A stretch of DNA of 64,000 bases, from contig CM059438.1 in NCBI GenBank assembly GCA_030390025.1, positions 79,546,001 to 79,610,000 of the forward strand. Direction: 5' to 3'. The position numbers and the translations under genes were made by a program. How positions within the stretch are numbered: position 1 is the stretch's first letter; each line of letters opens with the position of its first letter. The stretch is from Squalus acanthias (taxonomy: Eukaryota). The notes beneath the pieces were generated by a model. The model ran no database searches and was not told the origin of the DNA. It worked only from the letters and a program-made list of their open reading frames with translations. Of the stretch, positions 273-64,000 are shown one piece after another.

Positions 273-2030
273 GGGCGCCAGGTACACAGGTGGAGAAATC
301 AGTGGGTATTGTTAGATTAAGTTTTCACTTGAACTATTTTCTGCAGAAAAAAAAACACATGTTGCTAACGCCTTCCCTCTAAAATGTGTGCTGGTCAATT
401 TTTTAAGCTCCCGAACTGCAGCTGCCGCCTTTCAAAAATTAACACGGAAGTTTCAAGCTCCACTTAATAATGCGATTTTTGAAGTACATTAAACTCAAAT
501 TAATTGCTCAAACTTTTTTTTTTTAGCAGTTTATTTGATTCAGCTTCCAGCATCTGTCATGTGATGCTACCTTTAACACACTTGGATTTACTTTAGCTTT
601 GTAACTTTTAATGATACACTCCGAATCCTCTGGAGGGTGTCTGGGGCCACTGTTTAATTTCTACAACCTATGATCGTTTTACCATCCAACGGCACCCACT
701 ATAAGTGGAGCGGACTGTTTTAGCAGCATAATGCCGACCCTGTACCAACCACTGTACACATCCACCCTCCCTCCACGCAGTTACAATACCTTCCTGGCGT
801 CACTCTCCGTAGGCTTGTCGGAGAGTAATTGGGAATCCAAAGACCCTTTTTATTGCACGTGTGTGGTGTGAGGACATCATTACAGGACTCCACTTCCACT
901 GGAACATTCTCAATTGGGCGGCTTTGAAGCTTTTGGCATCATGAAGATACCCAAACTGGCTATGGATGCTTTGTGGGTCAGCTGCAGAGCCACTACACCC
1001 AGCAGCAGCTGACATCACCTATGATAAAAAATGGTTTACATTGTTTATAGGGGGAAAAAAATAAGAGAATGTTGATCAGTAGATTCCCTTTCGCTCTTAT
1101 GAAATAGTAACATGGATTTTTGTATTTAAGGCTTCTTCCTCTTTTCCAGCTGAAAACAATGTCCAAAGAATTAACTGCGAGATTCCCAAAGCACTTCCGG
1201 GAATGGTTGTTTACTTTACAAACTTCTTTTTGCATGTGCTTCAACTGCCCAATGAGGATACATAGCTGTTGTTAGTTTTTTTTTTTAATTATTTACTTTC
1301 AGTGATCACACCATCCTGATTATAGCAAAAAAAACCCCACATCAGGTTAAATATAATAGGCAAAATAACAGCAAAATCGAGGTAATTTCTTGTATTCAAA
1401 GAAAACCTTTTCTGTTTTGCCATTTTTATCCAAACAACAAATTGACAGATAACAGGCTCTGTAAAGAACAGGAATTGAACTGCAATGAGCAAAAATCAAT
1501 AGTAGCTCGCCAGTCACTGAGATTGTTAACCAACAGAAATTGAGAAAAGTGAGAAACAGATAATATATTGTGAATAGGCAAGCAGATTGTGGCCTGGAAC
1601 ACAAGGCAAGAGAATGTGGTGAATAAAGTTTGATACAGAATAAAGTTATCAGGGAAGTACCATGCACATAGCTGCAGCTTTGGTCTGTAGGAATGTGAGA
1701 CAAACACAAGTTCTGAGCTGAAGTTATGGTTTATTTAGAGAGAAATTACAGGTAAATATTTGGTTTATCTTTAAGGAGTATTAAAGAGTGCCGGCACAGA
1801 CACGATGGGCCAAATGGCCTCCTTCTGTGCCGTAAATTTCAATACTTCTATGATTAAACTGATCTCGTCAACTTTCAAAAGAAAATGACCATTGAATGCT
1901 GAACGAAGTATTCGTTTAATCACCCATGAACTAATTCATGAAATTAACTTATTCCCCCACCCGAAATCATTTGGTATTCTCGATACATTTTCAAACATTC
2001 AACAAATCCATTTTCTTCTCCCTTCTGCAG

Positions 2031-2590
2031 AATACATCCCTGCGACATTCAGCAATAAGAATTCAAGCAGCTCTGCCTCTTTTATTATCACGGATGATCC
2101 TGGCACAAAATTTGTTATTTCTTTTTTCATTCGCACACTAAAGGCAGATGGCTTCATATTACAACTCAGCAAGGGGGAAACTCCTTATCTCACAATATAC
2201 CTGAACAACAGCAGAATTTGTATTGAGACAAAAACTACGATGATAGAGTCATCTATGAACCTCGCCGATGGCATCAAACGACTGATAGAAATTCGCTTTG
2301 ATGAAGCCTGGGTGACTGTTAGCGAATCAGATGTTATCTTGCTAGATTTTCTATTGTCTTCTGTGAAGATTCAACCATTCGACATTGTCCACATTGGTCA
2401 AGGTCCGAATGAGGAGTCTGCTGCATGGGGAGGAGCTTTCAAGGGCTGCCTGCAGGACATAAGGCTCAACGATAACCAACTGGAGTTTTACCCACTGGAA
2501 ATCTGGAATTACACCTCACCACTGGGTGTTTACAACAATAAAACACTTGTAAATGTGATCAAGGATTGCATCAGTGATAATTCTTGTGTG
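2031..2590 (+). CDS. CRB2: Crumbs homolog 2, internal exon: laminin G domain (second LamG) and start of an EGF
   Basis: Acceptor ttttcttctcccttctgcag|AATAC, donor GTG|gtaaga. Peptide EYIPATF...SSASF...PG...SFFIRT...WGGAFKGCLQDIRLN...CISDNSCV is a Crumbs LamG, closer to CRB2 than CRB1 as recalled. Phase 1 in, phase 0 out. Confidence 0.93.
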
Positions 2591-4170: not shown

Positions 4171-4336
4171 GATGTTCCTTGCCAAAATGGAGGCAATTGT
4201 ACTGTGACGTGGAACGATTTTGAATGTAAATGTCCACAGGCGTTCACTGGAAGAACCTGCGCGGAGAAAGTGTGGTGCGAGACTGATCCATGCCCTGCAG
4301 GATGTCACTGTCAGAACCTTCCAGGTGGATATGAAT
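4171..4336 (+). CDS. CRB2: CRB2 internal exon, EGF-like repeats
   Basis: ttttatgcag|GAT ... GAAT|gtaaga. Peptide [61 protein letters not shown] is CRB2-like. 166 nt, phase 0 in, phase 1 out. Confidence 0.95.
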
Positions 4337-13789: not shown

Positions 13790-13916
13790 ATGTGAACAAG
13801 AAGTCAATGAGTGTGACCCAAACCCCTGCCAGAATGGAGGGACCTGCCAGGACCTGGTCAACAAGTTTGAATGCATTTGTGGAGCCAATTTCGCGGGCGA
13901 ACAGTGCGAGATTGAC
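13790..13916 (+). CDS. CRB2: CRB2 last EGF exon (missed by the ORF track)
   Basis: tttttttttgaag|ATGT ... ATTGAC|gtaagc. Peptide (R)[42 protein letters not shown]. 127 nt, phase 2 in, phase 0 out. Confidence 0.96.
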
Positions 13917-14036
13917 GTAAGCGACCTTTCTTTCTTCTGCTCAATGTTGCTTTGGCAAAATCTTTTTCAGTTCTTGTCCTATCTAATCCTGCACATGGAC
14001 ACCGAGGAGCCTGAAACAGAGTTTGTCTGGCGCTAG
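13917..14036 (+). CDS. CRB2: Alternative C-terminus by read-through of the last EGF exon (CRB1-B-like TM and acidic tail)
   Basis: In frame: [39 protein letters not shown]. Closely matches the human CRB1 alternative tail as recalled (VSSLSFYVSLLFWQNLFQLLSYLILRMNDEPVVEWGEQEDY). Confidence 0.85.
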
Positions 14037-14377
14037 ATTTGCTCAAGTCCTTCCAAATCTGTGTACCAGGGAGGGATGTGTTGTGACAATATGTATGGAA
14101 TACTATACAAGTAAAAAAAAAACATTTTTCAATCCTGTTGGAAGTTTGTAGGCAAATCTTTGGTGGTCCTAATGTTTCACAACTGATGTTGTCCAGCAGT
14201 AGAATGGCTACAATAATTAGTTTGTCCTGTTGAACACATGTTGGAATCGGAGCTGACACCCCAGTCTACTCCCCAAATGTGTGGAGGCCTCCACCATTCT
14301 CAGTCAGGTTACTGTGCAAAGTATTTAATTGAGGCAGAGCACTCTCATTTTATCAGTCTTTTCTCTGCTAAGGTTCT

Positions 14378-14383
14378 AATAAA
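14378..14383 (+). terminator. Candidate intronic poly(A) signal for the read-through isoform
   Basis: AATAAA ~340 nt after the stop at 14036, followed by U/GU-containing sequence. Position is suggestive only. Confidence 0.4.
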
Positions 14384-14529
14384 TTGTGGGTCTCCCCTGC
14401 CAGTATTATCTTACGTTGTATTCCTGCTCCGAGATCCACTGCCAGTTCACAAAGGAATAGGAAAAAATTAAAGTGTAGTCCGACTGCTAGATGGAAAGTA
14501 CAATTTCACTGATGTTAAAGTCACATTAG

Positions 14530-14840
14530 CACATAAAAGTAAAAACATGGAAACAGGCCATTTGGCCCAACCAGTCCAGGTCAGCGTTTACCCTCCACGC
14601 AAGCAAATAGTTCGAATCACATTTACTCACCCTGTTCCCATATCCAGTCAATTCCTTTCCTTCATCCACCGAACCAATCCAATCTTGAATGTTGGCACTT
14701 TCTGCCTCAACCACTAGCCCTGGAACTAAGTTTCACAACCTCACAGCTCTGTGTGAAGAGGCTTCTCCTGTCCTCAGTTCGAAATCTCTTACGTTTAAAA
14801 TCATGCTTAAGTGGCTCCTTAATCTTGACTCCATAACTAC
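14530..14840 (-). mobile_element. Old CR1 LINE 3' fragment
   Basis: caggccatttggccca tail motif. Translated remnants RRSLFTQ and VEAESA. Confidence 0.7.
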
Positions 14841-15429
14841 GGTCTTGATACCCCTGAACTGCACTAGTGCAGGTGCATCTAGTGGAAGCTCCTAGTCTGG
14901 TTTGTGTACTTATGCTGTTGATTGCCAAGTCATCACACTGTGATTTTCAGGTATCTAGGAGTTAACTACAGTCATTAACAATTTACGTACACAAACCATA
15001 CCTTCCCAAGATTGATTTCCACCATGAAAATGGACCATTTTCCTAACAAATGGTCCTGGTAAGCATTTCTCTAATGGTTCCACTTCATTAATCATCTATC
15101 TGTGCACATTGGGGAAAGAAGTATTTTTAAAGCTGCAGTGTCCCATAGTTGGCACAGTCAGAGTTTGAAGGTGCAAGAGATTTATCCAAAACTAGAAGAT
15201 TAAAGTGATGCTACAAGTAGCACTCAGTAAGATTTCAATTGTCAATCTAAAGAATTGATTTTGCCGAAGCAAAATCCCAGCCATTTTTCCCTAAAATAAG
15301 ATGGTTGTAAAAGCAAACTTGCAGTAAATTAGAAACTCAAAACCTGTTGAAGAAAAGAGCCCAAGTACATTGTGCAAAACAAGTTACAGCAACGGCACTG
15401 ATGCTGCAACTATTCTGTCTATTAAAGCT

Positions 15430-16120
15430 TCATAGAAATTTTCAGCACAGGAGGCCATTCGACTCATCGTGTCTGTGCCGGCCGGAAAAGAGCTATCCAG
15501 CTTAATCCCACTTTCCAGTTCTTGGTCCGTAGCCTTGTAGGTTACGGCACTTCAAGTGCATATCCAAGTACTTTTTAAATGCGATGAGGGTTTCTGCCTC
15601 TACCACCCTTTCAGGCAGTGTTTTCCAGACCCCCACCACCCTCTGGATGAAAAAATTTCTCCTCAACTCCACTCCAATCCTTCTACCAATTACTTTAACT
15701 CTATGCCCCATGGTTATTGACCTCTCTGCTAAAGGAAATAGGTCCTTCCTATCCACTCTATCTAGGCCCCTCAAAATTTTATACACCTCAATTCAATCTC
15801 CCCTCAGCCTCCTCTGTTCCAAAGAAAACCCCAGCCTATCCAATCTTTCCTCATAGCTAAAATTTTCCAGTCCTGGCAACATCCTCATAAATCTCCTCTG
15901 TATCCTCTCTCGTGCAATCACATCTTTCCTGTAATGTGGTGACCAGAGCTATACTAGCTGTGGCTTGACTAGTGTTTTATACAGTTCTAGCATAACCTCC
16001 CTGCTCTTATATTCTATGCCTCGGCTAATAAAGGAAAGTATCCCGTATGCCTTCTTAACCACCTTATCTCCCTGTCCTGCTACCTGCAGGGATCTGTGGA
16101 CACGCACTCCAAGGTCCCTC
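15430..16120 (-). mobile_element. CR1 LINE 3' fragment
   Basis: ORF MYKILRGLDRVDRKDLFPLAE...RRNFFIQRVVGVWKTLPERVVEA is a CR1 ORF2 C-terminus. Confidence 0.9.
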
Positions 16121-18890
16121 TGTTTGTACAGGTTCAGGTTGAATCATTGCATATACACTTTGCACCTTTTACTACTTTGACTCTTGCAGCTCCAGGACAG
16201 AACATTGCGTGCCCTATTTTATCTAGTAAAAGACTAGCACTAGGTAGAAGGACTTGAAGCCAAGTCTGTGTTGCAAATATGATTAACATTTACAGCAAAT
16301 GTTTGCTCAAATAAATACCTTTGATTAACCTGCTAGGATTTCATGGGTTGATGATTTTCAACGGAACTTGAATGCAATCATTTCACTTACGAGGCCAAGT
16401 AACAAGAAAACTTCGAAGTTGAAATATTTTGGTTATTAAAATAGAACATTACCTTAATTTTAAAATAAATGGTTTTATAAAACCATGAGGAAAAACTGAC
16501 AATTATGAGCAGTTTTAGCCAAATTTATTGCTATTTTTGACTATGTCATCAACACTCTGGTGTTTCCTTTCAGTTTTATGCGCTGTATAACCACAAACTA
16601 ACCAGCTTGAATAAGAATATGCATGATAAAGAGCTGCATCAATCACTTTTACCTGGTCACATTCAGTTTATATAAAGAATATTTTTGGACTCTGAACATG
16701 GGTTGTAATTAAATGTACATAACAGAGTTTATATAACTACTTTGTAAATAGACTGTATGCTACATTATTTTTTAGATCTGCGGGGATCCATCAGTACTTT
16801 CATTCTAGGGTTTAGTGCCTGTTGGGTTGCTTGTTTAATCACATGGGAATGCTTGAATCTGCTATCATTCGAATGGTTCCTTCTTCCAAAATGCACTGCT
16901 TCTTCTACCCTGTTTTCACTGGATGGACTCATACTGTTGCTAATGTGGTCTTGGAATGGATACCTGCATGTGCTGGGTTCTTTAGGGTGACACTGGATTT
17001 AGTTTATGAAAGAGCATGGGATACCTTGGAGAATGCTAGTGTATGCAATCAAGTGAATATTATGAGAATGCCTTACTTGACATCCAGCATGACTTTCTTT
17101 ATGACCTTGGAATTTCTTATTCCTCATTTGCTAATGCTTCTCCTCAGCTCAGAACTGTTATAATGTACAGCGAAAAAAACATTTATCAGACTTGGGGAAT
17201 GTTCAAAGCATAAAGTGATTTACCTTAAGTATTTGCTTTTGTGTCTTCTTGTCTGTCATCTCTTTTTCTTCCACAAATATGTCATCTGCCTTTTGTTATT
17301 TATTTGGGCGGAGGATGTCTTCCAATCTTCCCTTCCTCTAATGAATTTATTGCCTCCAAAAGGACTAATCCTCTCTCGGTCAGGATGGCTGACAGCAGCT
17401 CATCAAAAGGTAGTTAGTCTAAGAATTTTTTTCTATGCAGTATATCTCACCAGAATGTGCCATTTGACTTATTCCTTCCTTGCTGGCAGGAGTATGGAAC
17501 TCCATGCTCATTGCCTTTTCAGGGAACCAGAGAAGCCCTTTTGGAAAGTTAATAAATGGGAGAGGATTAATCTGCTAGTAATACCTAGCTGTTGTGCATC
17601 TGTTCTCCCTTTAACACATTAACTGTTTCTGTCTTTAACAAACAGAGCTAATTTTTCCTATATGGCTTTTACTAAGGATTTACTCAATGACGACTAAAAT
17701 CATTTTTGTCTACTAACAGTTCCTGAATGACATGTTGTGCACTTCATTGGAATAAACCAATTTGTATGTTTTCTGCTGGCTGTGCTCCTTCATCTTCAAT
17801 GTGCTTTTTCCGTTTTCAGGGTAATGCTCTTTACCAGGATATGTTTTCAGAATGTATAAAGAGTTGGATCTTGCTCATACCAGTGGCACTTTACATAATT
17901 ATCCAACCCAGCAACACACGCACATGGTACTTCCTGCTGGGATGTTTATCTGAATAAGCATTGGTCCAGGTTTACAAACAGATGTGACTGACAGTTATTT
18001 CAGCAAGGATGGCATTAATCTTCTGTCACCGATGGGATTGTGGCATTAATTGGTAATCTCAGAGACACATGGCTGTGTGTTTTATCACGCTGCTTCTGCG
18101 TGTGCAATTAGCATTAAGATTAAGATATAGTGAAGGAGCTTATTATTCATGCAGCTTCATTATGTTAACAGCTTGTTACTCATCAGAAACATTAAAAAGA
18201 TGACACAAAGTATTACAGAAGTTGCAAACATTTGTTGGATGTTTACATTATGACTGTAAGTGCATCAATTAGAACAGTTCATGAATAATAGACTGTAGTT
18301 TGTCTAACTGCCATCTTCTCCTCACCTCAGTCTGGACCGACCAGACTTTAAAAAAAAAATCAGTCAATAAAACCGGACACAGAATGAAATGTAATAATAG
18401 TTCACTGGTGATGAACACTAAATTGAATTTGAAACCAGGAGTGACCTGCCCAATTATGGCTTCTTGATTTATCTGATCTTTTTTCAAACTTGATGCTGTC
18501 CTGCTCTGTGAGCTTTGGCCCTTCACTTAGGTTTCTCAATTAAAAAAAAAGAATTGGCTATTCCTGTTTCTTACCCCACAGAGACTCAAATTTGCCTTAA
18601 TTGTATCTGGTGCGCATAAAGATTTTTTCATTGCCTTGCCGTCACAACTAAAGGCAAAATAACAGGGATGGAGGAAATGAGGTGCATTTAAATTCTGGTG
18701 GCCTTATGGTGTGTACACCATTTTGCAGCAATTATATACATTGATGCTTCTTTCTAGTACAGGGTTAGGTACTTCTTTTCTGATACTGCAGTGTGGTATG
18801 TCAGTGCTGCAGAATGGGACATTCTTTTCAACTCGGTGTCAATAACTAATACTCTCAGGTCATGCACAGCACAAGATATATTTAGGGTAA

Positions 18891-21800
18891 AGATCTATCT
18901 TTGCCCCCTCCCCTTCCTCATCTACATGCTGCCCTTCAGCAACATCAAAGACATAGAAGATAGGAGCAGGAGTAGGCCATTCGGCCCCTCGAGCCTGTTC
19001 CGCCATTTAATGAGATCATGGCTGATCATCCAAATTCAGTACCCTGTCTGTCCCTGCTTTCTCCCCATATCCCTTGATCCCTTTAGCCTTAAGAAATATA
19101 TCTAACTCCTTCTTGAATATATTTAATGAATTGGCCTCAACTGCCTTCTGTAGTAGAGAATTCCACAGGTTCACCACTCTCTGGGTGAAGAAATTCCTCC
19201 TCATCTCAGTCCTAAATGGCTTACCCCTTATCCTTAGACTCTGACCCCTGGTTCTGGACTCACCCGCCATCAGGAACATCCTTCCTGCATCTAGTCTGTC
19301 TAGTCCTGTTAGAATTTTATAAGTTTCAATGAGATCCCCTCTCATTCTTCTAAACTCTAGCGAATATAAGCCTAATCGACCCAATCTCTCTTCATATGTC
19401 ATTCCTGCCATCCCAGGTATCAGTCTGGTGAATCTTCGCTGCACTCCCTCCATGGCAAGAACATCCTTCCTCAGATAAGGCGACCAAAACTGTACACAAT
19501 ACTCAAGGTGTGGTCTCACCAAGGCCCTGTACAACTGCAGCAAGACATCCTTGCTCCTGTACTCGAATCCTCTCGCTATGAAGGCCAACATACCATTTGC
19601 CTTCTTAACCGCCTGCTGCACCTGCATGTTTACCTTCAGCGACTGGTGCACAAGGACACCCAGGTCTCGTTGCACTTCCCCTTTTCCCAATCTATTGCCG
19701 TTCAGATAATAATCTGCCTTCCTGTTTTTGCCACCAAAGTGGATAACCTCGCATTTATCCACATTATACTGCATCTGCCCTGCATCTGCCCAATCACCCA
19801 ACCTGTCCAAATCATACTGGAGTTTCTCTGCATCCTCCTCACACCACACACACCCACCCAGCTTTGTGTCGTCTGCAAACTTGGAGATATTACATCTAGT
19901 TCCCTCGTCTAGATCATTAATATATATTGTGAATAACTGGGGTCCTAGCACCGATCCCTGCGGTACCCCACTAGTCACTGCCTGCCACTCGGAAAAAGAC
20001 CCGTTTATTCCAACTCTTTGCTTCCTGTCTGCCGACCAGTTCTCTATCCAAGTCAGTACCTTACCCCCAATCCCATGTGCTTTAACTTTGCATGCTAATC
20101 TCTTATGCGGGACCTTATCGAAAGCCTTCTGAAAGTCCAAATACACCACATCCACTGGTTCTCCCTTATCTATTCTACCAGTTACATCCTCAAAAAATTC
20201 CAGTAGGTTAGTCAATCATGATTTACCTTCTGTAAATCCATGTTGACTTTGTCCGATCCTGTCACTGTTTTCCAAGTGCTCTGCTATTACATCTTTTATA
20301 ATGGACTCTAGCATTTTCCCCACTACCGATGTCAGGCTATAATTCCCCGTTTTCTCTCTACCACCTTTTTTAAATAGTGGGAACTGTGCCAGAGTGTATA
20401 GAATTTTGGAAGATGACCAGCAATGCATCTACTATTTCTAGGGCCACTTCCTTAAGTACCCTAGGATGTAGATTATCAGGCCCTGGGGATTTATCGGCCT
20501 TCAATCCCTACAAATACTGATTTCATTCAGTTCCTCCCTCTCATTAGACGCTATGTTCCCCGACATCTCTGGGAGGTTATTTGAGTCCTCCTTTGTGAAA
20601 ACAGAACCAAAGTATGTATTTAATTGGTCTGCCATTTCTTTGTTCCCCATTATAATTTCCCCTGATTCTGACCGCAAGGGACCTACGCTTGACTTCACCA
20701 ATCTTTTTCTCTTCACATATCTATAGAAGCTTTTACAGTCAGTTTTTATGTTCCCTGCAAGCTCACTCTCATACTCTATTTTCCTCCTCTTAATTAATCC
20801 CTTTGTCCTCCTTTGCTGAATCCTAAACTGCTCCCAATCCTCAGGTTTGCTGCTTTTTTGGCCAATTTATATGTCCTCTCCTTGGATCTTATGCTATCCC
20901 TAATTTCCCTTGTTAGCCACGGTTGAGTCACCTTTTTTGTTTTATTTTTATGCCAAACAGGGATGAACAAATTCTGTAGTTCATCCATGCGATCTTTAAA
21001 TGTTTGCCATTGCCTATCCACTGTCAACCCTTTAAGTAACGCTCCATCCATCCTAGCCAACTCACGCCTCATACCATCGTAGTTTCCTTTATTTAAATTC
21101 AGGACCCTAGTCTCTGAGTCAACTACTTCACTCTCCATCTTAATGAAGAGTTCTATCATATTATGATCGCTCCTCCCCAAGGGGCCTCGCACAACAAGAT
21201 TGCTAATTAATCCTCTCTCATTACATAATACCCAGTCTAAGATGGCCTGATCTCTAATTGATTCCTCTACATATTGGTCCAGAAAACCATCCCGTATACA
21301 CTCTAGGAATTCCTCCTCCACAGTATTGTTACTAATTTGGTTAGCCCAATCTATATGTAGATTAAAGTCACCCATGATAACTGCTGTGCCCTTATTGCAC
21401 GCGTCTCTAATTTCCTGTTTAATGCCATCCCCAACCTCAGCATTACTGTTTGGGGGTCTGTATACAACTCCCACTAACGTTTTCTGCCCCTTGGTATTTC
21501 TCAGCTCTACCCATACAGATTCCACATCATCAGAGCTAATATCCTTCCTTACTATTGTGTTATGGCATCAGGTTTCACATATACGCTGACAACACCCAGA
21601 TCTACTTCTCCACCATCTCTCTTGACCCCTCCACTGCGGCTGTGTTGTCAGCCTGCATGTCTGCCATTTCATCGGGAAGACCGAAGCCATCGTCTTTGGC
21701 CCCCACTACCAACTCCGACTCCCTCCATACGCACTGTCTCAGGTTGAAGCTGTCTGTCCGCAATTTCCGCATCCTATTTTATCCCGAGCTGAGCTTCTGA

Positions 21801-22479
21801 CCCCACATCTTCTCCATCACAAAGACCATCTACTTCTGCCTTTGTAATATCGTGCGTCTCCATCCCTGCCTCAGCCCGTCTGTTGCCGAAACCCTCATCC
21901 ATGCCGTTGTCACCTCCAGACTGGACTATTCCAATGCTCTCCTGGCCAGCCTCCCATCCTCCATAAACCTCATCTCATCTAAGCTTGGTCTCATCTCATC
22001 CAAAACTCTGTTGCCCATATCCTAACCCGCACTCTCCAGTGCACCCATTAACCCTGTGCTTGCTGACCTATGTTGCCTCCCGGTGGTCCAATACCTCCAA
22101 TTCAAAATTCTCATCCTTATCTTCAAATCCCTTCATGGCCTCACCCCTCCCTATCTTTGTAACCTCCTTCAGCCCTACAACCCTTGGAGAACACGGCGTT
22201 CCTGTAACATTGGCCTCAGCCATCCCCACTTCCTTCGACCCACAATTGGCGGCCGTACCTTCAGCCATTTAGGCCCTAAGCTCTGGAATTCCCTCCCTAA
22301 ATCTCTTTTCCCCTTTAAGACCTTCCTTAAAAAAAAACTACCTCTTTGACCAAGCTTTTAGCTGCCTCCTAATACCTCCTTGGGTGGCTCGGTGTCAATG
22401 TTTGTCGGATTACGGTTGTGAAACATCTTTGGCTGTTTTTCTACATTAAAGGCGTTGTATAAATTCAAGTAGTTGTTGT
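18891..22479 (+). mobile_element. L2-clade LINE 3' portion split by a CR1 insertion (pieces ~18891-18946 and ~21560-22479)
   Basis: RT motif PLPFLIYMLPFSNI continues after the CR1 as YGIRFHIYADNTQIY. Downstream LPV..LQFKILILIFKSLHGLTPPYL...GGRTFS...PKLWNSLP, then a (gtt)n tail. Confidence 0.85.
18947..21557 (-). mobile_element. CR1 LINE, 5'-truncated, with endonuclease and RT fragments (frameshifted ORF2)
   Basis: APE motifs GVVYRPP, MGDFN, LDWVL, SDHN (20794-21525). RT motifs YLDFQKAFDKV, GVPQGSVLGP, FADD in a 399-aa ORF (19016-20215). Confidence 0.97.
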
Positions 22480-24295
22480 AAATTTGCCCCAACAGCGTAT
22501 TTCAACCCCCAGCTTCAGAAGTCATGACTTTGGGATCACTGATTGAGAGGTTAAACAATTGGTATTGCAATTGTTAACCACAAGAAACAGGGTTGAGCCT
22601 AACTGATTTCAATTATGACCCTTAGAGCCAATAGAAAAATGAGATTTAATTTCTTCTTTCTAGGTTTGATTCAACTTAGCCAGCTAAACTCAAACAGGAT
22701 AAACAGACTTAATGTCAAAAGGTTTATTGGAAGATCCCATTTTAAAAAACTTATTTTAATAGAATAGTATATTTAAATTTCCAACCCAATTTTAGATCAT
22801 CAATCCTGCTACACTAAGCTGTCATTCCCTATCTTCCACGACAGGAATGCAAGAGCTTTAAAACCATGTAAAGCACATGGATCTGACTCAGGCTGCTAGA
22901 AACAGTCAGGTCCTTCACGAGCTTGTGTCCTGTTTGATATACCCTGCCCGTGATTTGTTCTACACCACAACAGGGTTATAAAGGATAAAGACATTGATAG
23001 CTTTAGTACCTTCTCTTCCAGTCCACAGAGGATATTGGTCCTTGGGTGGAGGTGGGGTGGAGTTAAACAAACCTGGAAAGATGTGTAGTAAGAAATGCAT
23101 TCAGCCTCTGTTTTCAGGGCCAAGTTTGCATGGATCAGCTACTCTGGTACTAATAGTTAATAATGCACTTACAAAACTCCTGATACTAAATTATCAAAGT
23201 TAATTATTTTTCCACATTAATTAACTTTGTGGCAAACAATAATTTAACTCCTGCACATGTATGTGAAAATCAACATGGGACTTTAGGGTGAAAAGAAGAT
23301 AGCAACACAGATTTTACCAATAATGTAACTTGGTTTTCAACCAGTCCATATTATGAACCAATTACTGCTGATTGACCCAATTACTCCCATTTGCCAACAT
23401 TGTAAAGATGTTACTATTTCAGGATCAGCATTAAATAGAATACATCTGCAAACCAAATATCAAAGGCTGCTTTAAGAAATGTGTTAACAAAATGCAGTAC
23501 GTGTTGGTTTGGAGAAATTATTACTGCGTTGAAAATTTTAGTTGCAATGAAGGGGTGCTGGTTTGGTTAATTGATTTTGCCTCCTTATCAAGTACTTATT
23601 CCTCTGGGGTTGACCATTATCTCCAATTTGTCTCAGCAGGAAAATGCTCTCACCTTGTTTGCAATGCACACCTTGCTGAAGCTTTTACTGTATTAAGTAA
23701 TTAAATAGTAACTTTCCCATTAGCAAAGCATTTATGATTTGTGCATAAATGCGGTTCACAGTACTGTGTATTTGAATGTGTAATGTAGCCATATGGCTGG
23801 ATTTAGTCTTCTACAGACAATCTGCAGGGCTTCAGTAGTCCCGTTGTGGGGCCCACAAGGAGATAATCAAGCCCTGCTTCCAATCATTCATCAAATGGGA
23901 CTTCATCTACAGCAAGCTGGAAACTTGTGACCTCAAAAATCCACAAAACAGTAAGTATCCTATCCAAAGTTCTACTTCTTGAATATTTTTAGAATGATTA
24001 AATTATTTCCTAGACAGGCTCCTGAGGTGACACAAAGCCGTACTGGCATCTCTCATGCCCACTCACTATCCAATGATATTAGGGTTAAAATTCCTCTGTA
24101 CACTGGTTAGCTGTATTCCTGTGTGCAATAATTTAACAAAGTCAGTTTATTTGTAGTAAACTGTATAATTTGTAAGAGTCCCATTGGAGATGTCTGTTTT
24201 CGAGGCTGAGAGCTGTAGCTTATCAAGTCATTCTTCATAGCTCCTCTCTATAATACCAGGTATCAACCTCATTACAATTCTCTGCACCATCTCTA

Positions 24296-24875
24296 GGGCT
24301 TGCTTAGCCCCCTTATGACAAGTGCTAAGTGGATGATGCTTCTCGGCCTCCTCCTGAGGTGCTCACCATCACAGATGCCAGTCTTCAACCGAACTGATCT
24401 CATTCTACGTGACATCAAGAAACAGCTGAGTGCACTGGACACATCCAAGGCTACGGACCCCAACAACATCCTGGCTGTAGTGCTGAAGACCTGTGCTCCA
24501 GAACTAGCCATGCCCTTAGTCAAGCTGTTCCAGTACAGCTGCTCCAGTACAGCTGCAACACTGGCATCTATCTGAAAATGTGGCAAATTGCCCAGTTATG
24601 TCCTGTCCACAAAATGGACAAATCCAACCCTATCAATTACCGCACTATCAGCCTACTCCCAATTGTCAACAGTGTTATCAAGCAGCACTTACTCACCAAT
24701 GCTCAGTTTGGGTTCTGCTCGGACCACTCGGCTCCAGCCCCAGTTATTACAGCTTTGGCCCAAACATGGACATGAACTGAGTTCCAGAGGTGAGGGGAGA
24801 TTGACTGCCCTTGACCGTGTGCGCCACCAAGGAGCCTTAGTAAAACTGAAATCAATGGGGGTCGGGGGAAAACTT
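24296..24875 (+). mobile_element. Degenerate LINE RT fragment, probably the same family as 46481-49059
   Basis: LDTSKATDPNNILAVVLKTCAPELA, PVHK..KSNPINYRTISLL and QFGF are N-terminal RT motifs, with frameshifts. Confidence 0.8.
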
Positions 24876-26099
24876 CTTCACAAAACTGAACTTTGGTCCA
24901 GGACATTAACTAACTAGAAAAATAATGTTAATGATTTTAGTTCTTGCTTTTAAATGCCCATAGCAAACTGCAGCTAGTAACAATTCCACAGAGAGAGAAA
25001 AGAGGGAGATGTCATTCAGGTTCATATTGTCAAAATCTGTGGAATAGCTCCAGTAAATTATAACCTTATTTGGTTGTGTTTCAAATAGTTATTCATTTTT
25101 AGCATATTTAATAACTTAACTTAAGAAGAGAGACACTTTTGCTGCTTACAAAGAACAGTTCCAGTCTTTGTCAAACATGCACAAGTTGCAGGCTCTTAAA
25201 GAGCTTTTCAGCTCCACTGGCCAGATCCATCAAGAATGTGGTCTGTTGCGAGCGGCAGGTTGGAAGATTAAAGGTTAAAAGTAACTGAAAAAAGCAATAA
25301 TATCTCTGCATGACATCAGGGGTTAATGCTCTTTGACAGATGCATTGTTGAAACTTGAATAGGCAGAGAAAGTAACCCAAGGGCTCAGCAGGCAGGACAA
25401 TAATAGATTCCCTGCTTTAACTTAAATAGTTTCTAACCTGGTCTGAAACTAAGCAATAAAAAGGCAAATGTTGCAGAAAGTTACATTAAATTGCAAGCTG
25501 GAACACTCTGTTGCAGTTAAAATACAAAAATGGGGTTTCCAGTTCAAGGGTAGTTCGTTACTCTTAGACCTTTTGAAGCATTAAATGTTATCAAAATAAT
25601 TTTCTTTACAGATAAATCTGTGCACAAAGGCAATAACAGGAAACAATAGACACACAAAACCAGTAGATTTCACCTTTAATGGTGAGAGTACTCGGTGTAT
25701 TGCAGGGTATAGCACTAATTTCTGTGCACTGTACTTCTGAGAGATTGATAATGAGGTATTGGCCTGGCAAATTGAGTGACTGATCCCCTTAAAACTGCTT
25801 AATCAAGTGCAGCATTATAAGAGGCACAAGAAAAGCTAAATATAATGACCAGTAAAAAAAACACGTTATTAAATGCATTGAAATCACCATGAAGAGAAGT
25901 GATACAAGAACTGCTCCTACGTGAGTTTATGTATGCTGTTCTCTGTGGTACTTTATTATTCACATTAAAAAAAACTGTAGTATCTTTTTCTGAAAGTGTG
26001 GGTTTTGTTCGTTGCTATGTTGATTGAAATGGGTGAAAATCAACTTAAAGGATTACAAATTTACTACTGCCAGGAGTGCCATAATTATTAAAGACTATG

Positions 26100-26290
26100 T
26101 ACCCCTTACCCAAAAGGCTGTGGATACTGGTTCAATTGACATTTTCAAGATTGAGATCGATAGATTTATGTTAGTTAAGGGTATCAAAGGATATGGAGCA
26201 AAGGTGGATAAATGGAGTTAAGGTACAGATCAGCCATGATCTAACAGAATGGCAGAAGACTCAAGGGGCTGAATGGCCTATTCCTATTGC
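26100..26290 (+). mobile_element. CR1 3' tail fragment
   Basis: IFKIEIDRF...KGIKGYG remnant and aggggctgaatggcctattcct tail. Confidence 0.8.
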
Positions 26291-28117
26291 AAGTAAGGTC
26301 AGATTACCAAGAGTTTGGCAGCTAAACCTACTTCTTGGCCTTACTACAAACTTTGCATAATATTGTGACTATCAGGGCAAAATACAGGGGACATTTTGGG
26401 TGTCACCATGTGGTGGGGAGGGGAGGGGAGGGGAGGGAAGCATTTACAGCACCTTGGAGAGCTAATTTGGTTGGCTCAGATTTTGTGATGTACCCAGGAC
26501 TCAACTGGAGGATGGTAAATTCCTCAAGACGGTCTTTACCAGAGCACTTGGCTGTTTTTCCTATAATCTTGGTAGATTAATTTAACAGACAAATATCCAC
26601 CTTGCAATTCAACCTCCAACTTCTCAAAGTGCAGAGGTGAGGTTTTAGAAATGAAGCATGCTGCTGAGAAGGTTGGCTCAATGGGCACCAGCGTCTTCCA
26701 CAAGTGGCCATTCTTCCTGTGTACTTAGGGTTAGCAGGTAATTTTACCATGGAGACATTACAGCCACATTATCATCCTCTCCAGACATCCACACAGATGC
26801 ACTTTCCAGCAACATCATTGGATCAAGAACAGTAGCCAGAACATTGGCAGATTAGTTCCCTCCTTAATCCAAAAACATGGAGACCAATTGTGGCACCCAC
26901 AAACAGATTAGATGTGATCAGCTAATTTAGCACAAAGTGGGGCCTTTCTGGTCCAAATGGCTGAGTACCACAATTTGTGGTCCATTTCCAGCTATGGTAC
27001 TGGAGGAGCCACCTCTCTTTTTGGGAGAGAGGAACCATTACTCTTGCTCTTCTTTAGATTATAACCTCCCCTTCGTGCACAACTCCAATACTGAGAGGAA
27101 AGACAGATGAACCATTTGCAATATGTAACCACATGCCATCCATAAGAGCATGAGAACAGTGCAGATTGATTCATGGTCTAAAACCTTAACTCTGTTGAAG
27201 AGTTACCCTTCAGCCCCCTCCCCAAATCACCTGGTGAAACTTGTGTGGAAAATCACAACACAATCCCATGTTCACAAAGATGTACAATAAACCTTTTAAT
27301 TTAAACTAAAGTCACCAATTTACTTAAAAGGACACTTCCCATTTGAGAGAGATTTTCAGAATAGGCGCGTGCTGGAATAGCCAGGCCTAGGTGCTAGAAC
27401 ATAATTTTGGCCTTTTTAAGTTATTGATCCCTTTAAATGTTCATCATATGAAGAATAATTTAGTGGAATAGAACAAGTGGCAGGATGATCCATGATTTAA
27501 TCATTCTGTAACTACACTGGAAACTTACAGACACCGAGGACCCAATTAATGCCGAAAGTTCTCCTTTTGTTCCAGATGATAAGCATACCTGTATATCAAT
27601 TGGCTCAATCCTGTACAAGCCCACTGAAAGTGGGACATTCTTCTGTTTATGTGTGAGTAGATCATTCAGGTATGTATCTGGGGCCAGGGCAAGTGGTGGG
27701 GGACTGTTGTAATGGACACAAAATTCATTCCATCGATGAAGAATGAGATTTCTCAAAAGTACAAGCATTAAGTAAATCTGTGCCACACTTTCTCTGAATA
27801 GATCTCACAAGTGCCACTGGCATGGGTCAATGATTGTTTACTTTAAGGTACTCCAAGCCACATTATTAATTTGGTGTGTTCACACTATTGTTACTGTTTT
27901 ATTAACAATGCTCTGTATGATTTCTCTGTCTGTACTGTTTCCTTGTCCAGTGCTTTGTCTGTTGTGCTTTTGCTTCTGATATGGCCCCTTGCTTCTGATA
28001 TCTGCGTCATATAATTTTAGTCGATTCCAAGGAGATGGAGAGGTTACTATGAACAATGCATTTAACAGAATCTGCAGCGGTTTGCGGCCCACTTATTGTC
28101 TCCCATTGTCTTTACAG

Positions 28118-28339
28118 AGAGGGAAAAAGGCCGACCCTGTCCCGTTACTGGCAGTAGCTGTGCCGGTGGTGTGTGGGAGTGCGCTGCTGATTGTAATAGC
28201 TCTTATTTTTGTGGTTCTTACTGCCCGTAAAAAGCGCCAGACAGAAGGGACGTACAATCCAAGCCAACAGGAAGTGGCTGGGGCTCGACTGGAGATGGAT
28301 AGTGTCCTTAAAGTGCCACCCGAAGAGCGCTTGATATGA
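28118..28339 (+). CDS. CRB2: CRB2 terminal exon A: transmembrane helix plus canonical CRB2-type 37-aa tail
   Basis: ctcccattgtctttacag|AGA, phase 0. Peptide [77 protein letters not shown]-binding GTY and PDZ-binding ERLI present. [24 protein letters not shown] matches CRB2. Confidence 0.97.
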
Positions 28340-29384
28340 TTGCTTGATTGATTGAACGCTTAGAGGAAAAGATGCTCTTGTTTTGAGTAGACCTCATATC
28401 TGACATTACAGGTAGCATTTCTTCAGCAATATGCCTGCTCATGACTACTGATTCTTCTGACACACCGAGAAAATTCTCTCATTCTAGGCATCTGCTTCAT
28501 CGAGAGGTTGATATAATCCAATTTATGTTGGCTGTGCAATTTTCTCACAGTAACTGCAGCTAGTGAAACGTCTAGTGGGGAAATTCACGCTGAGTATGCT
28601 GCTCATTGCAATGTCACATGAATGACATGTAACTTTTTTATCTACTGAAGTCAACTAAGACAGATTCAAGCATTCCCATTTATGATACATCACCACCTCT
28701 GCTAAGATCACGTCCGTCTCAGAAGTAGCTTTTACAGGTGTCCCATTCAGCTATTCTAATCCTTCGCCAGCATGTTGCATTTTACTGAAAAGCTTTTAAA
28801 TAAGCTCGTGTTCTGACTGATATGAAATTATGGTGGAAATATTTTTTCATTTATTTAAATGAACTTTTAAAGTAATTTTAAGTCTTAAGTGAACCATGTG
28901 GGTTTTTTTTAAAAAAAGATAGAATGCCATGTAGCCTTGAAATTTAAATTGATTTAATCTAAAAAAAAAATCTGAACTATGTGTTAATGAAGGAGGCATT
29001 TGTCCAAATCTATATATAGGGTTATGCTGGAAAAAGGGTTCCATGTTAACATTCCGTGATGGTGTTCTTTACGCAAATGGATAGAAGTAATCTTCTTTGG
29101 GTCTGATGTCATTGTCTTATCTTTTCCATGTCTAATTAAAGGCAAGTTCACTATGAGCAAGTCTGTACACAGCTTGAAAGCACCTATGTTGTTGCATCAA
29201 CAGTTGTTACTGACAGACTCTGTCCCTGCCTATTCTATGAACAAACTGCTGTTGGTGAAAAATCTCCCAGTAAGGTCAGGATGAGGATTTGTTACTTGAG
29301 TCCAGATACACATTGCTGGACAAGGACAACAAACAGTGTAACTTTCTCACTTCCATTTTACTCAATGGTAATGTTCTACAACAG

Positions 29385-29606
29385 AAAGGAACCACCCAGA
29401 GAAATGACACTCTCATTATCGCTGGTTCTGTGGCTGCAGCTGGAGGACTTGTCATCTTCATCATCGCCATCATAGTTCTGGTGATCACTATGAGAAAGAA
29501 GAGGGCAACGCAGGGAACCTATAGCCCCAGTCGGCAGGAAAAGGATGGAGCAAGGGTGGAGATGTGGAACATAATGAAGCCTCCACCAACAGAAAGGCTT
29601 ATTTGA
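29385..29606 (+). CDS. CRB2: Alternative terminal exon B: transmembrane helix plus CRB1-type 37-aa tail
   Basis: gttctacaacag|AAA, phase 0. Peptide [73 protein letters not shown]. 222 nt, the same length as exon A, with no stops or frameshifts. Confidence 0.88.
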
Positions 29607-30330
29607 CTTTCATTAAAAACAGGAGACAATTAAACAGAAGCTTATTAATCTGTTTGGGACTGAAGACAATACATGGTTTCAGGTGGTAATGAGTGATCCA
29701 AAGTAGTTCAGTCCAGTTAAAACTAGAGTCTGGCACTAAGCATGGCTAAGCTGGTAAAATCTAAATTGGAAGTGTGTGGAAATAGATAAATCTCAGAGGA
29801 ACGTAACTGGTTAGAGTCAAAATATTTGATGCTCACAAATGCAATGCATGACATGATTTTACATTAGATATCTTAAATGTACACTGCAAAAAGTTTCAGG
29901 AACTTTCAAAATAACTTGCCTCCAATGTCACTTATTGTCTTTTGGCACAACTTGAATTAATTATAATTAACACCGTCAGCATTTGCGCTGCTTCTAAGAT
30001 TAACTACTGAAAAGATCAGTTTTACTTTTTCTGATTGATTACTTTCAAGGCAATTACAACTATACAGGTTTTTAATCAAATGCTTTGCTTCCACTTTGTT
30101 TACAGTAGTCTCCACAGTGTCGTTAATGGGACATAAAATGACAAACGCATTTTCAACATCATTCCTAAATTATGTAATGAACTGGTAGCAGTATTAAGAT
30201 TAATATGAGCACAGAAGACAGAATAATCACATATAAAACAGTGAGTTGTTGTCAAGTGAATTCTAGATTAGGAAAGAAAGACAATGAGTTCCAGTACTCA
30301 TACTCAAGTAGTATCCATTTCAATTTAGGG

Positions 30331-30705
30331 GAAAGAAAGACTTGCATTTATATAGCGCCTTTCATGACCACCGGACGTCCCAAAGCGCTTTACAGCCAAT
30401 TAAGTACTTTTGAAGTGTAGTCACTGTTGTAATGTGGGAAACGCGGCAGCCAATCTGCGCACAGCAAGCTCCCACAAACAGCAATGTGATAATGACCAGA
30501 TCATCTGTTTTTGTTATGTTGATTGAGGGATAAATATTGGCCAGGACACCGGGGATAACTCCCCTGCTCTTCTTCGAAATAGTGCCATGGGATCTTTTAC
30601 ATCCGAGAGAGCAGACGGGGGCCTCGGTTTAACGTCTCATCCAAAAGATGGCACCTCCAACAGTGCAGCACTCCCTCAGTACTGCACTGGAGTGTCAGCC
30701 TAGAT
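30331..30705 (-). mobile_element. Deu-type SINE (5'-truncated)
   Basis: Same tail and Deu core as 5995-6420. Confidence 0.88.
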
Positions 30706-33399
30706 TCATGTTAGGAACTAATATGCTGGAACTCTTACTATTTTGAATCTAAAACTAGAACCTGCCTGGCAGAAATTTTATATTTTGTTAAATAATTCTT
30801 AAATATTTAGTACAAACTGGCATAATAGCAAAAACTTTACACTGTAAATCAAAACACCCTTATGTGATGGAACTAAACAGGTTTCTTTTGAGCTTTTTCT
30901 CCCCTCAGGAACTAACAACTTTCAGTAATTTTAAATCCTTTTCCCCCATTCAGAAAATTCCATTATTTATTTTTAGTGAGTCAGTTGGCCTTGCTTGATG
31001 ACTTTGGGTGAGAAAGGGTTAAGAAGATTTTTAAACCATCACTGCCTTTCACTGAATTGTATGAAGTCTTAGAATCAAGTGCAGTTAACTTTTAATACAT
31101 TGGAAACTAGATTATGAATTTGGAGTACTTTTATTAATTACACATTTGCAGACACGTTTTCACGGGGATGACTAACAAATATCAAGTGTTGCTTTTAAAG
31201 TTATACCCATGATGACATTTGGTTATAGCTTTGCCAGGTAGTGCTGTAACTCTTGGTTTGGTGAATAACTAAAATAATTTACTGAGCTCCCGATGTGACG
31301 TTAAAATTATGACCTTTTTCTAAGCGAATTCTTCCCCCTTCCCCCGCAATTGATATCATGCAAGATTACATTTATACTCACGAAAAAAAGAAAAAAAAAA
31401 ATCGCTCTAATTTCGCACAATCATTCTGGAGGAATTTTTTTTAACCAGAAATCCAGGACAGAGAAGCAAAAAATATTCAAGTGCTACAGATATGTAGTTT
31501 GAACATGTAACCAGTGGCATGAAGAGCCCTAAAGCCAACTTTGTTAGTTGTTTCAAGTACACAAGCTGTTTGACTAACACTCCATTGTTTTTTAACTTTC
31601 CCTGTTGCATTGCAATTGTTTCATTCTCCAGCAAATACAATACACAGCATGGTAATAGAAGGGAGACAAGGTAGTGGTGAAGAGGTGCAGTGTTTTACAA
31701 CCGCATCTCAGAGCCATATCGATACAAATGTTATTAACTACAGAGCATGACTCAAATCTTTATTACTATCCAGTCAGAAAACAAGAGTTCCAGGAGCGTT
31801 CATCTTGCTCTGAAGTTAAAACTTGTTTCTCCATACACTGCGCAACGTTTGGATGTCACCTCCATAAAATGTGTTTCATCATAAAATTGTATCAGTATTA
31901 GTTATGCCCCATGTTAACGAGAGTCTCCCTGAAGGTGATGGGGGCACATTTATTTGAAATGTTTTAGTATATGTAGACTACAGTATAGGGAAATGCAGGC
32001 GAGGTAATCTAATACTTATGAACTGTACAGATATTTCAAAATGAAAACATTAGTGCCCTATTGCATTGTTTGATCAATAGACTGACTGTCCATATGAATT
32101 TTTCCAATGTGCTTTTAAATATCAGATCAGTAAACTTAACTAGTTGGTTCACAGCTCACGAGTTGTTAAAAGAATGTATTGTTCTTCCCGTACTTGTTAG
32201 AACAACCATCATCTTCATTGCCATTTTTCCCCTTATGGTCTCTCACCTTGAAGTACTGGAAGGAGGGGAATGTAGGTGGAAAAACTCTGCTCCACCCCAC
32301 AGGAAGAGTCAGTTTAGGCTTAGACCAACATTTTAATTCTGAGGAGATATGTTTTGGTGCCTGGAGGTGTCCTACCCAATGGTCTGAATGAGACGCACAA
32401 AAGTCCCTGAAGTGTAATAGAAAAAAAAGTGAAAAACAAAAACAAAAAGTAGGGAATATTGAAAAGTATACACTAACCTTAATGATGGGAAGTATTAAGA
32501 TAAGCAGTGTTTTTTGTATAAGATACAATGACAACTCATAGAGTTGCTCAGATTGCACTAGGAGCATTAATCAGTGATGGTATTAGTAGATAACTTTTAC
32601 TTAACACTGGACAAAAAGGTATATTGCAGACTGCAGTGCCTTTAGATTTTAGAAAGAGAGAATTAGATGTAATTTTATTTGCCAAGTGTATTAATTCTTG
32701 TCCCACAATAGCACTAATTTTAGTCATATATTTAAATATTAGGTGATTGATCCTTTAATCCTTTTTATACGACAAAACAAAAGCAAATCTGGATTTAATA
32801 GGAGTAAGAAATAATAAAAGGCAAAAAGTGCTTCTCGACTCCGATTCCCTTAATCTGATTTAAGTAACTCTTGCACATTTAACATAACAAGCAACATATT
32901 TCAAGTTACTGTGTTTTAGAAGAACTTTTCTGCAATACTGCAGCACAAGTATATAAAAAATATTTCTCTGCTGGCTAAACAGATATTAAAATAAATCTAT
33001 TCTTTAATCACTGGGAACTGAACAATTGTAACAAGTTTCTATACAGATCGATGTAAAATAACCTTGTACATAATGAGGCAGGACTGAAGGAAATGTGGTA
33101 TTCTATTTTGTTGCTTACATGCAAAAAAAATGATGTTGTAAAACATCTTGGGATGACTTCATTGCTCCACACTGTTGTGGCCTTGCGTGCAGGCAAAGCC
33201 TGGCGACACTGGGCTGTAACCTTGTACTGCAGGTGATGTCACAATAGTATAAAAACAGGGGATCAACAAATTCACTGGGAAAACACGTGCTCTTTAAAGC
33301 AATGTACAAAAACCACTGAACACTGATGAATTAACAGCATTCTCAATAAAAGTCTTCAAATAGTTGTACCAAACAGTGGGACTGGATCTTCAGAAGATC

Positions 33400-39600: not shown

Positions 39601-40225
39601 AAGAACACAAGAACATAAGAAATAGGAGCAGGAGTAGGTCATTCGGCCCTTTGAGCCTGCCCCGCCATTCAATGAGATCATGGCTGATCTTCTGCCTCAA
39701 CTCCATTCACCGGCCCTATCGCCATATCCCTTGATGCCCTTACTAGTCAGAAATCTATCAATCTCTGTCTTGAATATACCCAATGACTGAGCCTCCACAG
39801 CCCTCTGGGGTAGAGAATTCCAAAGATTCACCACCCTCTGTGTGAAGAAATTTCTTCTCATCTCGGTCCTGAATGGCCTACCCTTTATCCTGAGGCTGTG
39901 GCCCCTGGTTCTAGACTCCTCAGCCAAGGGAAACATTCTCCCAGCATCCACCCTATCAAGCCCTGTAATAATTTTGTATGCTTCAATGAGATCCCCTCTC
40001 ATTCTTCTGAATTCAAGAGAATACAGGCCTAGTTTACTCAATCTCTTCTCATACGACAGTCCCGCCATCCCAGGAATCAATCTCGTGAACCTTCGTTGCA
40101 CTCCCTCTATGGCAAGTATATCCTTCCTTAGGTAAGGAGACCAAAATTGTGCACAGTACTCCAGGTGTGGTCTCACCATGGCCCTATATAATTGGAGTAA
40201 GACTTCTTTACTCCTGTACTCAAAT
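39601..40225 (-). mobile_element. CR1 LINE 3' fragment
   Basis: ORF VRPHLEYCAQFWSPYLRKDI...RRNFFTQRVVNLWNSLP, with aagaacataagaa tail. Confidence 0.95.
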
Positions 40226-63174: not shown

Positions 63175-64000
63175 CTGCAAAGATACATACAATGAAAAAG
63201 TAACATACATGTATTTTTGAATAGTAAGAGTGTATTGTCATAATTCAGTGGAACTAGGGCTTTGAAACGAATACTAAGGTTGGCATGCATCTGCAAACAG
63301 GTTAAAACGCGCTAAATTGATTTATACATTCTCTGGGCAATATTGCAGATTACAAAAATGCAGTGAATAAAGTCTTATGGGCTGATTATGCTACCAAGCA
63401 GTTTCTGATGCTCATCAACACAAACCATATAACTCAGGATTCTGACTGACATAACCCACTGTACTAATACTGACAAACCTTTTCAGCTTTCAAAACATAG
63501 ACATGGACTATGGACATAGTTTCCTTCTATGACATCATTGATAAATTTCACCAGTTCTCAGCTGGGCTTATTGCTGGAAAAAAAATACAATTTACCTGCC
63601 TGTTAGCAAGTAGGACTTATTTTTAAAGACCCTGCCTAGATTAACTTTTCACTCACCATCAAGCTACTTGAAACTAACCTATGGAATGGAATTTAAAAAG
63701 GAACCATGCACAACTTTGATGAGGAGGATGAGCTGGCCAGTGGAATCGGGAGGATCTGCACCAGCCCACAAGAAACAAGAGCTGCTATGTTTTTCAGTTA
63801 GCTACAGCTGCAAGTTCAACCAGTTAGAAAGTAGAGCCATTGATCTTTCATCAGGATGTTGCATGGGGTTTGTCAATGCTGGACTAGGTACAAGAAAGTT
63901 TCTCATCACAAAGGCAAGTCTTCAACCTCCAACCTCTCTCCAGTTTACTGACGCTACTAAAGCCATTACTCCTTAGGACCTTCTTCTCGTTTATTCTAAG

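Follow-up and report, generated by a model that had tools for sequence, protein, structure and literature searches.

A shark CRB2 gene with three alternative C-terminal endings that probably predate the CRB1/CRB2 split

The stretch of DNA analyzed here (the window, 64,000 nucleotides; G000:C14:79546001-79610000) lies in the 3.7-Gb genome of Squalus acanthias and includes a long Crumbs gene, represented by its 3′ half and encoded by the + strand, which we assign to CRB2. Its last EGF exon ends at a weak splice donor from which three in-frame endings can be reached. We designate these B (the read-through end), U (the upstream tail exon) and D (the downstream tail exon). The same three endings stand in the same order at the CRB1 locus of this genome, and we propose that they arose before CRB1 and CRB2 split. 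The features of the gene are as follows, in window coordinates.

2030..2589 (+), boundaries approximate: coding exon for the second laminin-G domain; 84% to the Heterodontus protein P0176 by tblastn
4171..4336 (+): coding exon for EGF repeats; match to P0176
6759..7626 (+): coding exon for the third laminin-G domain and three EGF repeats (Pfam PF02210, PF00008); 90% to P0176 and 45% to the paralog on C15
9293..9409 (+): coding exon for one EGF repeat; match to P0176
13790..13916 (+): last EGF exon, with the switch located at its weak phase-0 donor; donor used in three of four sequence runs
13917..14036 (+): ending B, an in-frame intron read-through giving a CRB1-B-type C-terminus with no FERM or PDZ motif; 22/28 to the CRB1 read-through on C15
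14378..14383 (+): candidate intronic polyadenylation signal AATAAA, with a putative role in the B transcript
17820..17957 (+): possible fourth, minor terminal exon, noted as a lead; acceptor and 45-codon phase-0 open reading frame, single copy in the genome
28118..28339 (+): tail exon U (CRB2/CRB3-type), transmembrane segment plus 37-residue tail with FERM motif and ERLI; spliced from 13916 in runs X1, X2 and X7
29385..29606 (+): tail exon D (CRB1-type), transmembrane segment plus 37-residue tail with FERM motif and ERLI; 94% over 66 columns to Heterodontus CRB2 isoform X2
29607..32000 (+): shared 3′ untranslated region (UTR), covered by contigs to at least 32000, with candidate signals at 32813 and 33345

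The donor at 13916 is in phase 0 (GAC/GTAAGC) and scores 1.46 on a simple matrix; its GTAAGC is identical at the CRB1 donor on C15. The site is presumably weak because GTAAGC also encodes the first B residues. Past it, the frame stays open to a stop at 14034-14036, adding 40 residues that are 77% identical to bird CRB1-B ends. This B tail has neither a FERM motif nor ERLI, as expected for a B-type end, and a role as a photoreceptor membrane protein, a trait of the CRB1-B type, is putative, the highest 19-residue hydropathy being only 1.36. Exons U and D begin at phase-0 AG acceptors (28118 and 29385), each encode a transmembrane segment and a 37-residue tail ending in ERLI, and stop at 28339 and 29606, with 1045 bases between the U stop and D. 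By definition (PMC5968619), a Crumbs tail has a FERM motif and a C-terminal ERLI; both traits are present in U and in D (the former as RxxxGxYxPS), together with a single transmembrane segment, and both tails match the Drosophila tail in PDB 4WSI. U and D differ beside the aPKC sites and just before ERLI, with the FERM and PDZ motifs kept in both. The first-pass annotation had proposed one donor position with three outcomes, and the donor, the acceptors, their phases and the open read-through, all in frame, bear this out.

These features suggest how an ending may be chosen. If the donor is ignored and the transcript is cleaved near the AATAAA at 14378, the protein would end in the B tail, which carries no polarity motifs; B would thereby abolish the polarity output. 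Splicing would by default reach the nearer acceptor at 28118, which has the better pyrimidine tract, giving tail U and leaving D untranslated in the 3′ UTR, and skipping of U would give tail D, as modelled in other species. U and D may thus modulate how partners bind without turning binding on or off.

Four sequence runs from unrecorded tissues were aligned to the window. Their nature as RNA is presumed, and we took them as RNA because the joint 13916>28118 spans 14,201 bases with GT..AG ends. The RNA contigs establish that U is used, this joint being found in contigs of three of the four runs (X1, X2 and X7). One contig is unbroken over 28118-30215, so D forms part of the 3′ UTR of the U-spliced RNA. 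Use of D in the window we infer from conservation and from public gene models such as Heterodontus isoform X2, and use of B likewise from conservation and public gene models. A separate observation concerns 17820-18116, where there is a strong acceptor and an RNA contig alignment begins exactly at 17820. This contig, from run X2, aligns there beginning at its base 31, as does the contig spliced at 28118; a joint into 17820 is absent among the 15 of 81 joints listed.

The window gene has the Pfam domains of the Crumbs family (EGF and Laminin_G_2) and matches the shark Crumbs protein P0176 at 86% over 1389 aa; its nearest relatives are sharks (89% over 858 columns to Heptranchias Crumbs). An ectodomain tree of 19 rows (LG+G4) joined it to tetrapod CRB2 (86/78); the CRB1 clade (100/99), which did not include it, held the C15 gene. 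These 19 rows are a set of 24 from which Gouania, goby, Acanthaster, Discoglossus and Chiloscyllium were removed; the set holds no mammalian CRB2, and one exon is missing from the C15 CRB1 model in the ectodomain trees. The neighboring genes agree with the tree, beginning with one further feature of the window.

61837..63237 (-): probable last coding exon of a convergent gene, putatively DENND1A; 466-codon open reading frame, no Pfam match, Atlas uninformative

On the same strand, 216 kb beyond this open reading frame, a DENN exon matches DENND1A at 33/33 residues vs 31/33 for DENND1B, and past DENND1 a LIM exon pair of the LHX2/9 type lies at C14:80.13 Mb (LHX2 and LHX9 not discriminated). 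A Crb2-Dennd1a-Lhx2 block is known in tetrapods (PMC3100342), and the arrangement in the window agrees with it. Judged by these comparisons the gene is CRB2. Its identification as CRB1 was ruled out by the ectodomain trees together with the DENND1A match; the grouping with CRB1 that would have overturned the earlier account was not seen. Upstream of CRB2 exon 1 (C14:79440196), EGF-repeat exons at C14:79389678-79416909 (+) may represent a separate or a decayed EGF gene.

The three endings are not confined to this locus. Two genome-wide searches gave five Crumbs tail exons, which are spread over three loci (five matches among nine candidates in one search, six among 26 in the other, the sixth being a signal-peptide exon). 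At CRB1 on C15, the B read-through is followed by an intact U-type exon and, 243 bases on, by exon D, so that a CRB2-type exon does occur in the last intron of a chondrichthyan CRB1, where the first-pass annotation had suggested looking for one. The third locus, CRB3 on C22, has a single tail exon of the U type and no D or B remnants in 70 kb. The order B-U-D is thus identical at both long-Crumbs loci of the genome. In both C15 tails, U and D, the aPKC motif is without its second threonine, a residue that both window tails keep. A comparison of the C14 and C15 last introns turned up LINE (long interspersed nuclear element) repeats and B as the only common sequence. The C15 B-extension matched that of the window at 22/28 residues at a single position, and the likeness is not due to chance because the runner-up among 127,828 six-frame positions reached only 9/28. 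Scans for a B-type first exon with its own promoter found none that was convincing at the CRB2 locus, and none that CRB1 and CRB2 have in common. On C15, the intron preceding the first laminin-G exon of CRB1 holds a candidate CRB1-B-type first exon (C15:68673904-68673862, minus strand), which is short and hydrophobic, opens with ATG and has a good donor in phase 1.

The three loci also share their surroundings. All three Crumbs genes lie tail to tail with a DENND1 gene; on C14 and C15 the order Crumbs, convergent DENND1, LHX2/9-type gene is mirrored, and on C22 Crumbs again faces DENND1. Human chromosomes 1 and 19 are one pair of this paralogon. The expectation that the species has a separate CRB1 next to DENND1B held in part: CRB1 on C15 stands beside a DENND1 and an LHX2/9-type gene, and the DENN exon there did not discriminate DENND1A from DENND1B.

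We compared the tails in a tree of 35 rows and 67 alignment columns, with supports that are moderate because the alignment is short. All 16 D tails formed one clade (97/92) and all 10 U tails another (88/89), across genes. The tails therefore group by position and not by gene, in contrast to the ectodomains, as the comparison of ectodomain and tail trees called for earlier now shows. The window U tail is 34/37 identical to turtle CRB2-U. Derived residues are shared across genes in the same way, D having a Trp and a Lys after 'QE' and U a Glu in 'TEG'; among invertebrate-type tails, the derived state occurs in 1/26 for Trp and in 0/24 each for Lys and Glu. Tails this short and strongly constrained could in principle converge, in which case CRB1 and CRB2 would each have duplicated a tail exon in tandem independently. 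An approximately unbiased (AU) test, however, rejected the CRB1-locus U and D tails as a clade (p=0.008), and invertebrates seldom or never have the derived residues that the genes share, so that we find independent duplication scarcely credible.

The CRB3 tail grouped with CRB1-U (88/87), apart from CRB2-U, and CRB1 itself contains a CRB3-like unit. The unit (C15:68622906-68612985, minus strand) is nested in the last intron of CRB1, where a signal-peptide exon in phase 1 (C15:68622906-68622825) and a 53-nt exon splice onto the shared exon U to encode 118 aa. The layout of CRB3 on C22 is equal to it (phase-1 signal-peptide exon, 53-nt middle exon, exon U), and two public models of 118 residues, which bear the names 'crumbs homolog 3-like' and '3a' and fall with shark CRB1 in clustering, map to the nested unit. 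The 14,201 bases of the window intron gave no candidate for short-unit exons in a scan that did detect the real ones on C15 and C22, and a relaxed scan of the window returned weak or repeat-derived candidates only. On the simplest reading of these layouts, CRB3 would go back to a short isoform made from within the long gene, which remained after the ectodomain of one ohnolog had disappeared. The short unit would either predate the CRB1/CRB2 split and have been lost from CRB2, or have arisen on the CRB1 plus CRB3 branch. The reverse derivation, with the CRB1 upstream exon being part of a CRB3 copy inserted into the CRB1 intron and CRB2 having duplicated its own tail or obtained D from CRB1, would fit the affinity of CRB1-U to CRB3 and the presence of short-unit exons at C15 and C22 and not in the window. 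We hold it to be very unlikely: at each of the two loci D comes directly after U (243 and 1045 bases on), CRB3 itself lies in the matching paralogous block beside a convergent DENND1, and the insertion would require two independent events with the same layout and leave B on both genes unexplained.

The divergence of the endings bears on their age. Between C14 and C15, 22/28 residues of B are shared, with 5/2/17 differences at codon positions 1/2/3, and because of this distribution we consider B to be under protein-level selection. The corresponding values are 26/37 residues and 7/3/22 for the D tail, 25/37 and 10/5/17 for the U tail, and 23/42 and 12/10/28 for the EGF half of the B-bearing exon. 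Third positions thus differ in 22/37 codons of D and 17/28 of B, vs 28/42 in the EGF part, or about 60% divergence, and the degree of third-position divergence is similar in all four segments. The D tail of the window is closer to bird CRB2-D (31/37) than to CRB1-D of its own genome (26/37), although platypus CRB1-D reaches 29/37. A recent transfer of D or B from the species' own CRB1, which would have undone the earlier proposal, is excluded because third codon positions are about 60% diverged; the tree position of the tails excludes it as well.

Other species carry the same combinations, with CRB1-type and CRB2-type ectodomains called against complete references. Among 210 candidates, 83 proteins had tail D, and 79 of these had a CRB2-type ectodomain; those that are named come from amphibians, turtles, lizards and birds. 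CRB2 therefore still has D in frogs, salamanders, turtles, lizards and birds. No mammal was among the 79 in this insensitive protein search. Bird proteins with the label CRUM1 account for 44 of the 83; they have a CRB2-type ectodomain, and the label is probably a mis-annotation caused by the CRB1-type tail. In public models, U and D occur together with a CRB2-type ectodomain in seven species (the shark Heterodontus, the amphibians Xenopus, Ambystoma, Rhinoderma and Ascaphus, the turtle Pelodiscus and the lizard Pogona) and with a CRB1-type ectodomain in five chondrichthyans (Scyliorhinus canicula, Cetorhinus, two Chiloscyllium species and Callorhinchus). CRB1-U was found in chondrichthyans only, the five among 77 candidates including no bony vertebrate, and B on CRB2 was seen in the Squalus acanthias genome only; absences of CRB1-U and CRB2-B elsewhere are weak evidence because both searches were insensitive. 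Mouse CRB1 models carry D or B (the B model being P0343), and mammalian CRB2 is not known to have any tail exon but U. A representative-protein search swamped by EGF matches supplied the invertebrate outgroups, with no lamprey or hagfish among its 20 named proteins. Two public models, P0001 and P0002 (a bird and one further record), splice from a cryptic donor shortly before U ends onto D and so have two transmembrane segments; they are probably prediction artefacts, and we took from them only the exon order, which they confirm.

Taken together, we propose that B, U and D arose before the CRB1/CRB2 split and that shark CRB2 inherited its alternative last exons from a single Crumbs locus, a reading to which we give a probability of about 0.82. 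In an early vertebrate, the terminal exon with the transmembrane segment and tail would have been duplicated in tandem, U then D, with the B read-through already present. Genome duplication would then have copied the block, shark CRB1 and CRB2 retaining B, U and D, and a third copy may have retained only a short unit with an internal promoter that splices onto U, becoming CRB3. Reciprocal loss would have come late, amphibian and sauropsid CRB2 still having U and D and mammalian CRB1 using D and B. Since D is still on CRB2 of amphibians, reptiles and birds, tail partitioning was late, long after the duplication, and given this block history the canonical CRB1 and CRB2 tails would be paralogous exons and not ohnologous ones. 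The first-pass annotation had already argued for an ancestor with all three tails; the identical B-U-D at both ohnologs and the clustering of tails by position speak for it, and what stays indirect is the pre-duplication timing. Its division of tails between the mammalian genes stands for mouse CRB1, with D or B; the account has to be amended in its timing, CRB2 having kept D in amphibians, reptiles and birds. Its three endings are real, and with CRB3 and the nested short unit, both of which it missed, the pattern becomes four-way.

Several observations weigh against this reading, some of them on the side of expression. The joint 13916>29385, which would splice D, was not among the 15 of 81 joints listed. 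Over the B region, one run of four has a contig (14012-14637), modestly above intronic background. The public isoform models are predictions whose RNA support is putative. The history could accordingly be right and this shark still use U only, as the sole junction seen (three of four runs) might indicate, with D and B being unexpressed relics. D is intact, however, at 94% to the modelled isoform of another shark and kept as far as birds (31/37 tail residues), and the codon-position differences of B against its paralog (5/2/17) speak against a relic; moreover, 15 of 81 joints in unrecorded tissues are a small view and contigs drop rare variants. We regard the disuse of D and B as quite unlikely.

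The remaining adverse points concern the history itself. The timing before the genome duplication is drawn from gnathostomes and invertebrate outgroups and is thus indirect. In a quick mixture-model tree of 24 rows, the CRB1 clade was the same and CRB2 monophyly had a support of only 50. All eight candidates in the B search sat on CRB1-type or short proteins and none had a CRB2-type ectodomain (an insensitive search). In the tail tree, the support for the U clade is unstarred and the CRB2-D tails do not resolve as a clade, with just 67 columns to draw on; the CRB2-locus U and D tails as a clade were not rejected by the AU test (p=0.117); and U-D identity within a locus (24/37 and 21/37) is about that of U-U (25/37) and D-D (26/37) between loci. 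The last two points would also suit an origin of the U-D block, and of B, at one locus after the duplication, with homeologous exchange or gene conversion then carrying a copy to the other locus in stem gnathostomes, prior to the divergence of sharks from bony fish. Such a block transfer yields the same exon order and the same by-position tail tree, and all tail distances would be alike. Against it, the EGF half of the B exon matches between loci at only 23/42 and its third positions (28/42) are as diverged as those of B (17/28); a transfer would accordingly need to date from close to the split itself and to have taken in an intron span of 14-23 kb. It is also an extra event of which there is no direct sign, and we judge it unlikely.

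Inheritance of all three endings from one locus can be extended to a fuller model, towards which we lean slightly. In this model, a single locus before the first duplication, the source of all vertebrate Crumbs genes, would have combined a long ectodomain, an internal promoter for the short form and the endings B, U and D. CRB3 would be the short isoform set free, and the photoreceptor CRB1-B tail would be older than CRB1. Teleost crb3a would derive from the CRB1 paralogon and not from a teleost duplication of CRB3, and CRB2 of chick and Xenopus would make a CRB1-tailed isoform so far overlooked by functional work.

Both CRB1 and CRB2 are disease genes of the retina and kidney, and their signalling is carried by the 37-residue tail. 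If the proposed origin is true, the tails of CRB1 and CRB2 are separate exons, each with its own history, and tail comparisons, tail-based trees and tail antibodies in chick, frog and fish have to be read differently; the mislabelling of bird CRUM1 proteins (44 of the 83 D matches, 79 of which have a CRB2-type ectodomain) is already visible. It would also provide a testable origin for CRB3 and make the CRB1-B tail, itself poorly understood, older than the CRB1/CRB2 split. The natural combinations CRB2-D, CRB2-B and CRB1-U could serve to separate ectodomain function from tail function. Most of these isoforms already stand in public gene models. In the literature we found no description of tandem Crumbs tail exons, of a B-type tail on CRB2 or of CRB3 nested in CRB1; this search left the subscription literature mostly uncovered, and a prior description is possible.

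Elsewhere in the window, fragments of LINE retroelements with long reverse-transcriptase or endonuclease-like open reading frames lie in the last intron and downstream (19016-21567, 39697-42320 and 46615-49012), and a long tandem repeat at 52593-54378 opens several repetitive reading frames.

Among known systems, the closest to ending B is the mammalian CRB1-A/CRB1-B switch. The CRB1-B C-terminus is without the two conserved Crumbs motifs and the isoform has its own 5′ exon and promoter (PMC7335077); the main text of that paper does not contain 'CRB2'. The B end of the window is likewise without the motifs, arises by read-through of the last EGF donor and resembles the mouse B model P0343 in type. 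In contrast to the mammalian switch, it sits on CRB2, is accompanied by two ERLI tail exons instead of one, and had no 5′ exon of its own in our scans. With vertebrate CRB2 (zebrafish crb2a/crb2b and tetrapod CRB2), the window gene shares the ectodomain clade, the neighbors and the U-type tail. The CRB2 forms described are membrane and secreted ones, along with a short zebrafish crb2b form from an internal start, and the available parts of these accounts mention neither a second, CRB1-type tail nor a B-type tail, both of which the window has (PMC3100342, PMC7044448). Zebrafish crb3a and crb3b are treated as duplicates of crb3 (PMC5676222). With CRB3, the window gene has the U-type exon in common, and the nested C15 unit has the three-exon coding layout of CRB3; unlike CRB3, the window has U without short-unit exons, and the C15 unit shares its last exon with CRB1 and is not a separate gene. 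A more general parallel is the mitf pair, which splits alternative isoforms. In zebrafish, mitfa and mitfb have been named as a case of subfunction partitioning after genome duplication (PMC1538996), and as there, alternative products of one ancestral Crumbs gene would have become fixed in separate paralogs. Unlike in mitfa/mitfb, the Crumbs duplicates were not preserved by a prompt reciprocal loss of tails; the parts divided are tandem-duplicated terminal signalling exons, and both shark ohnologs kept the full set.

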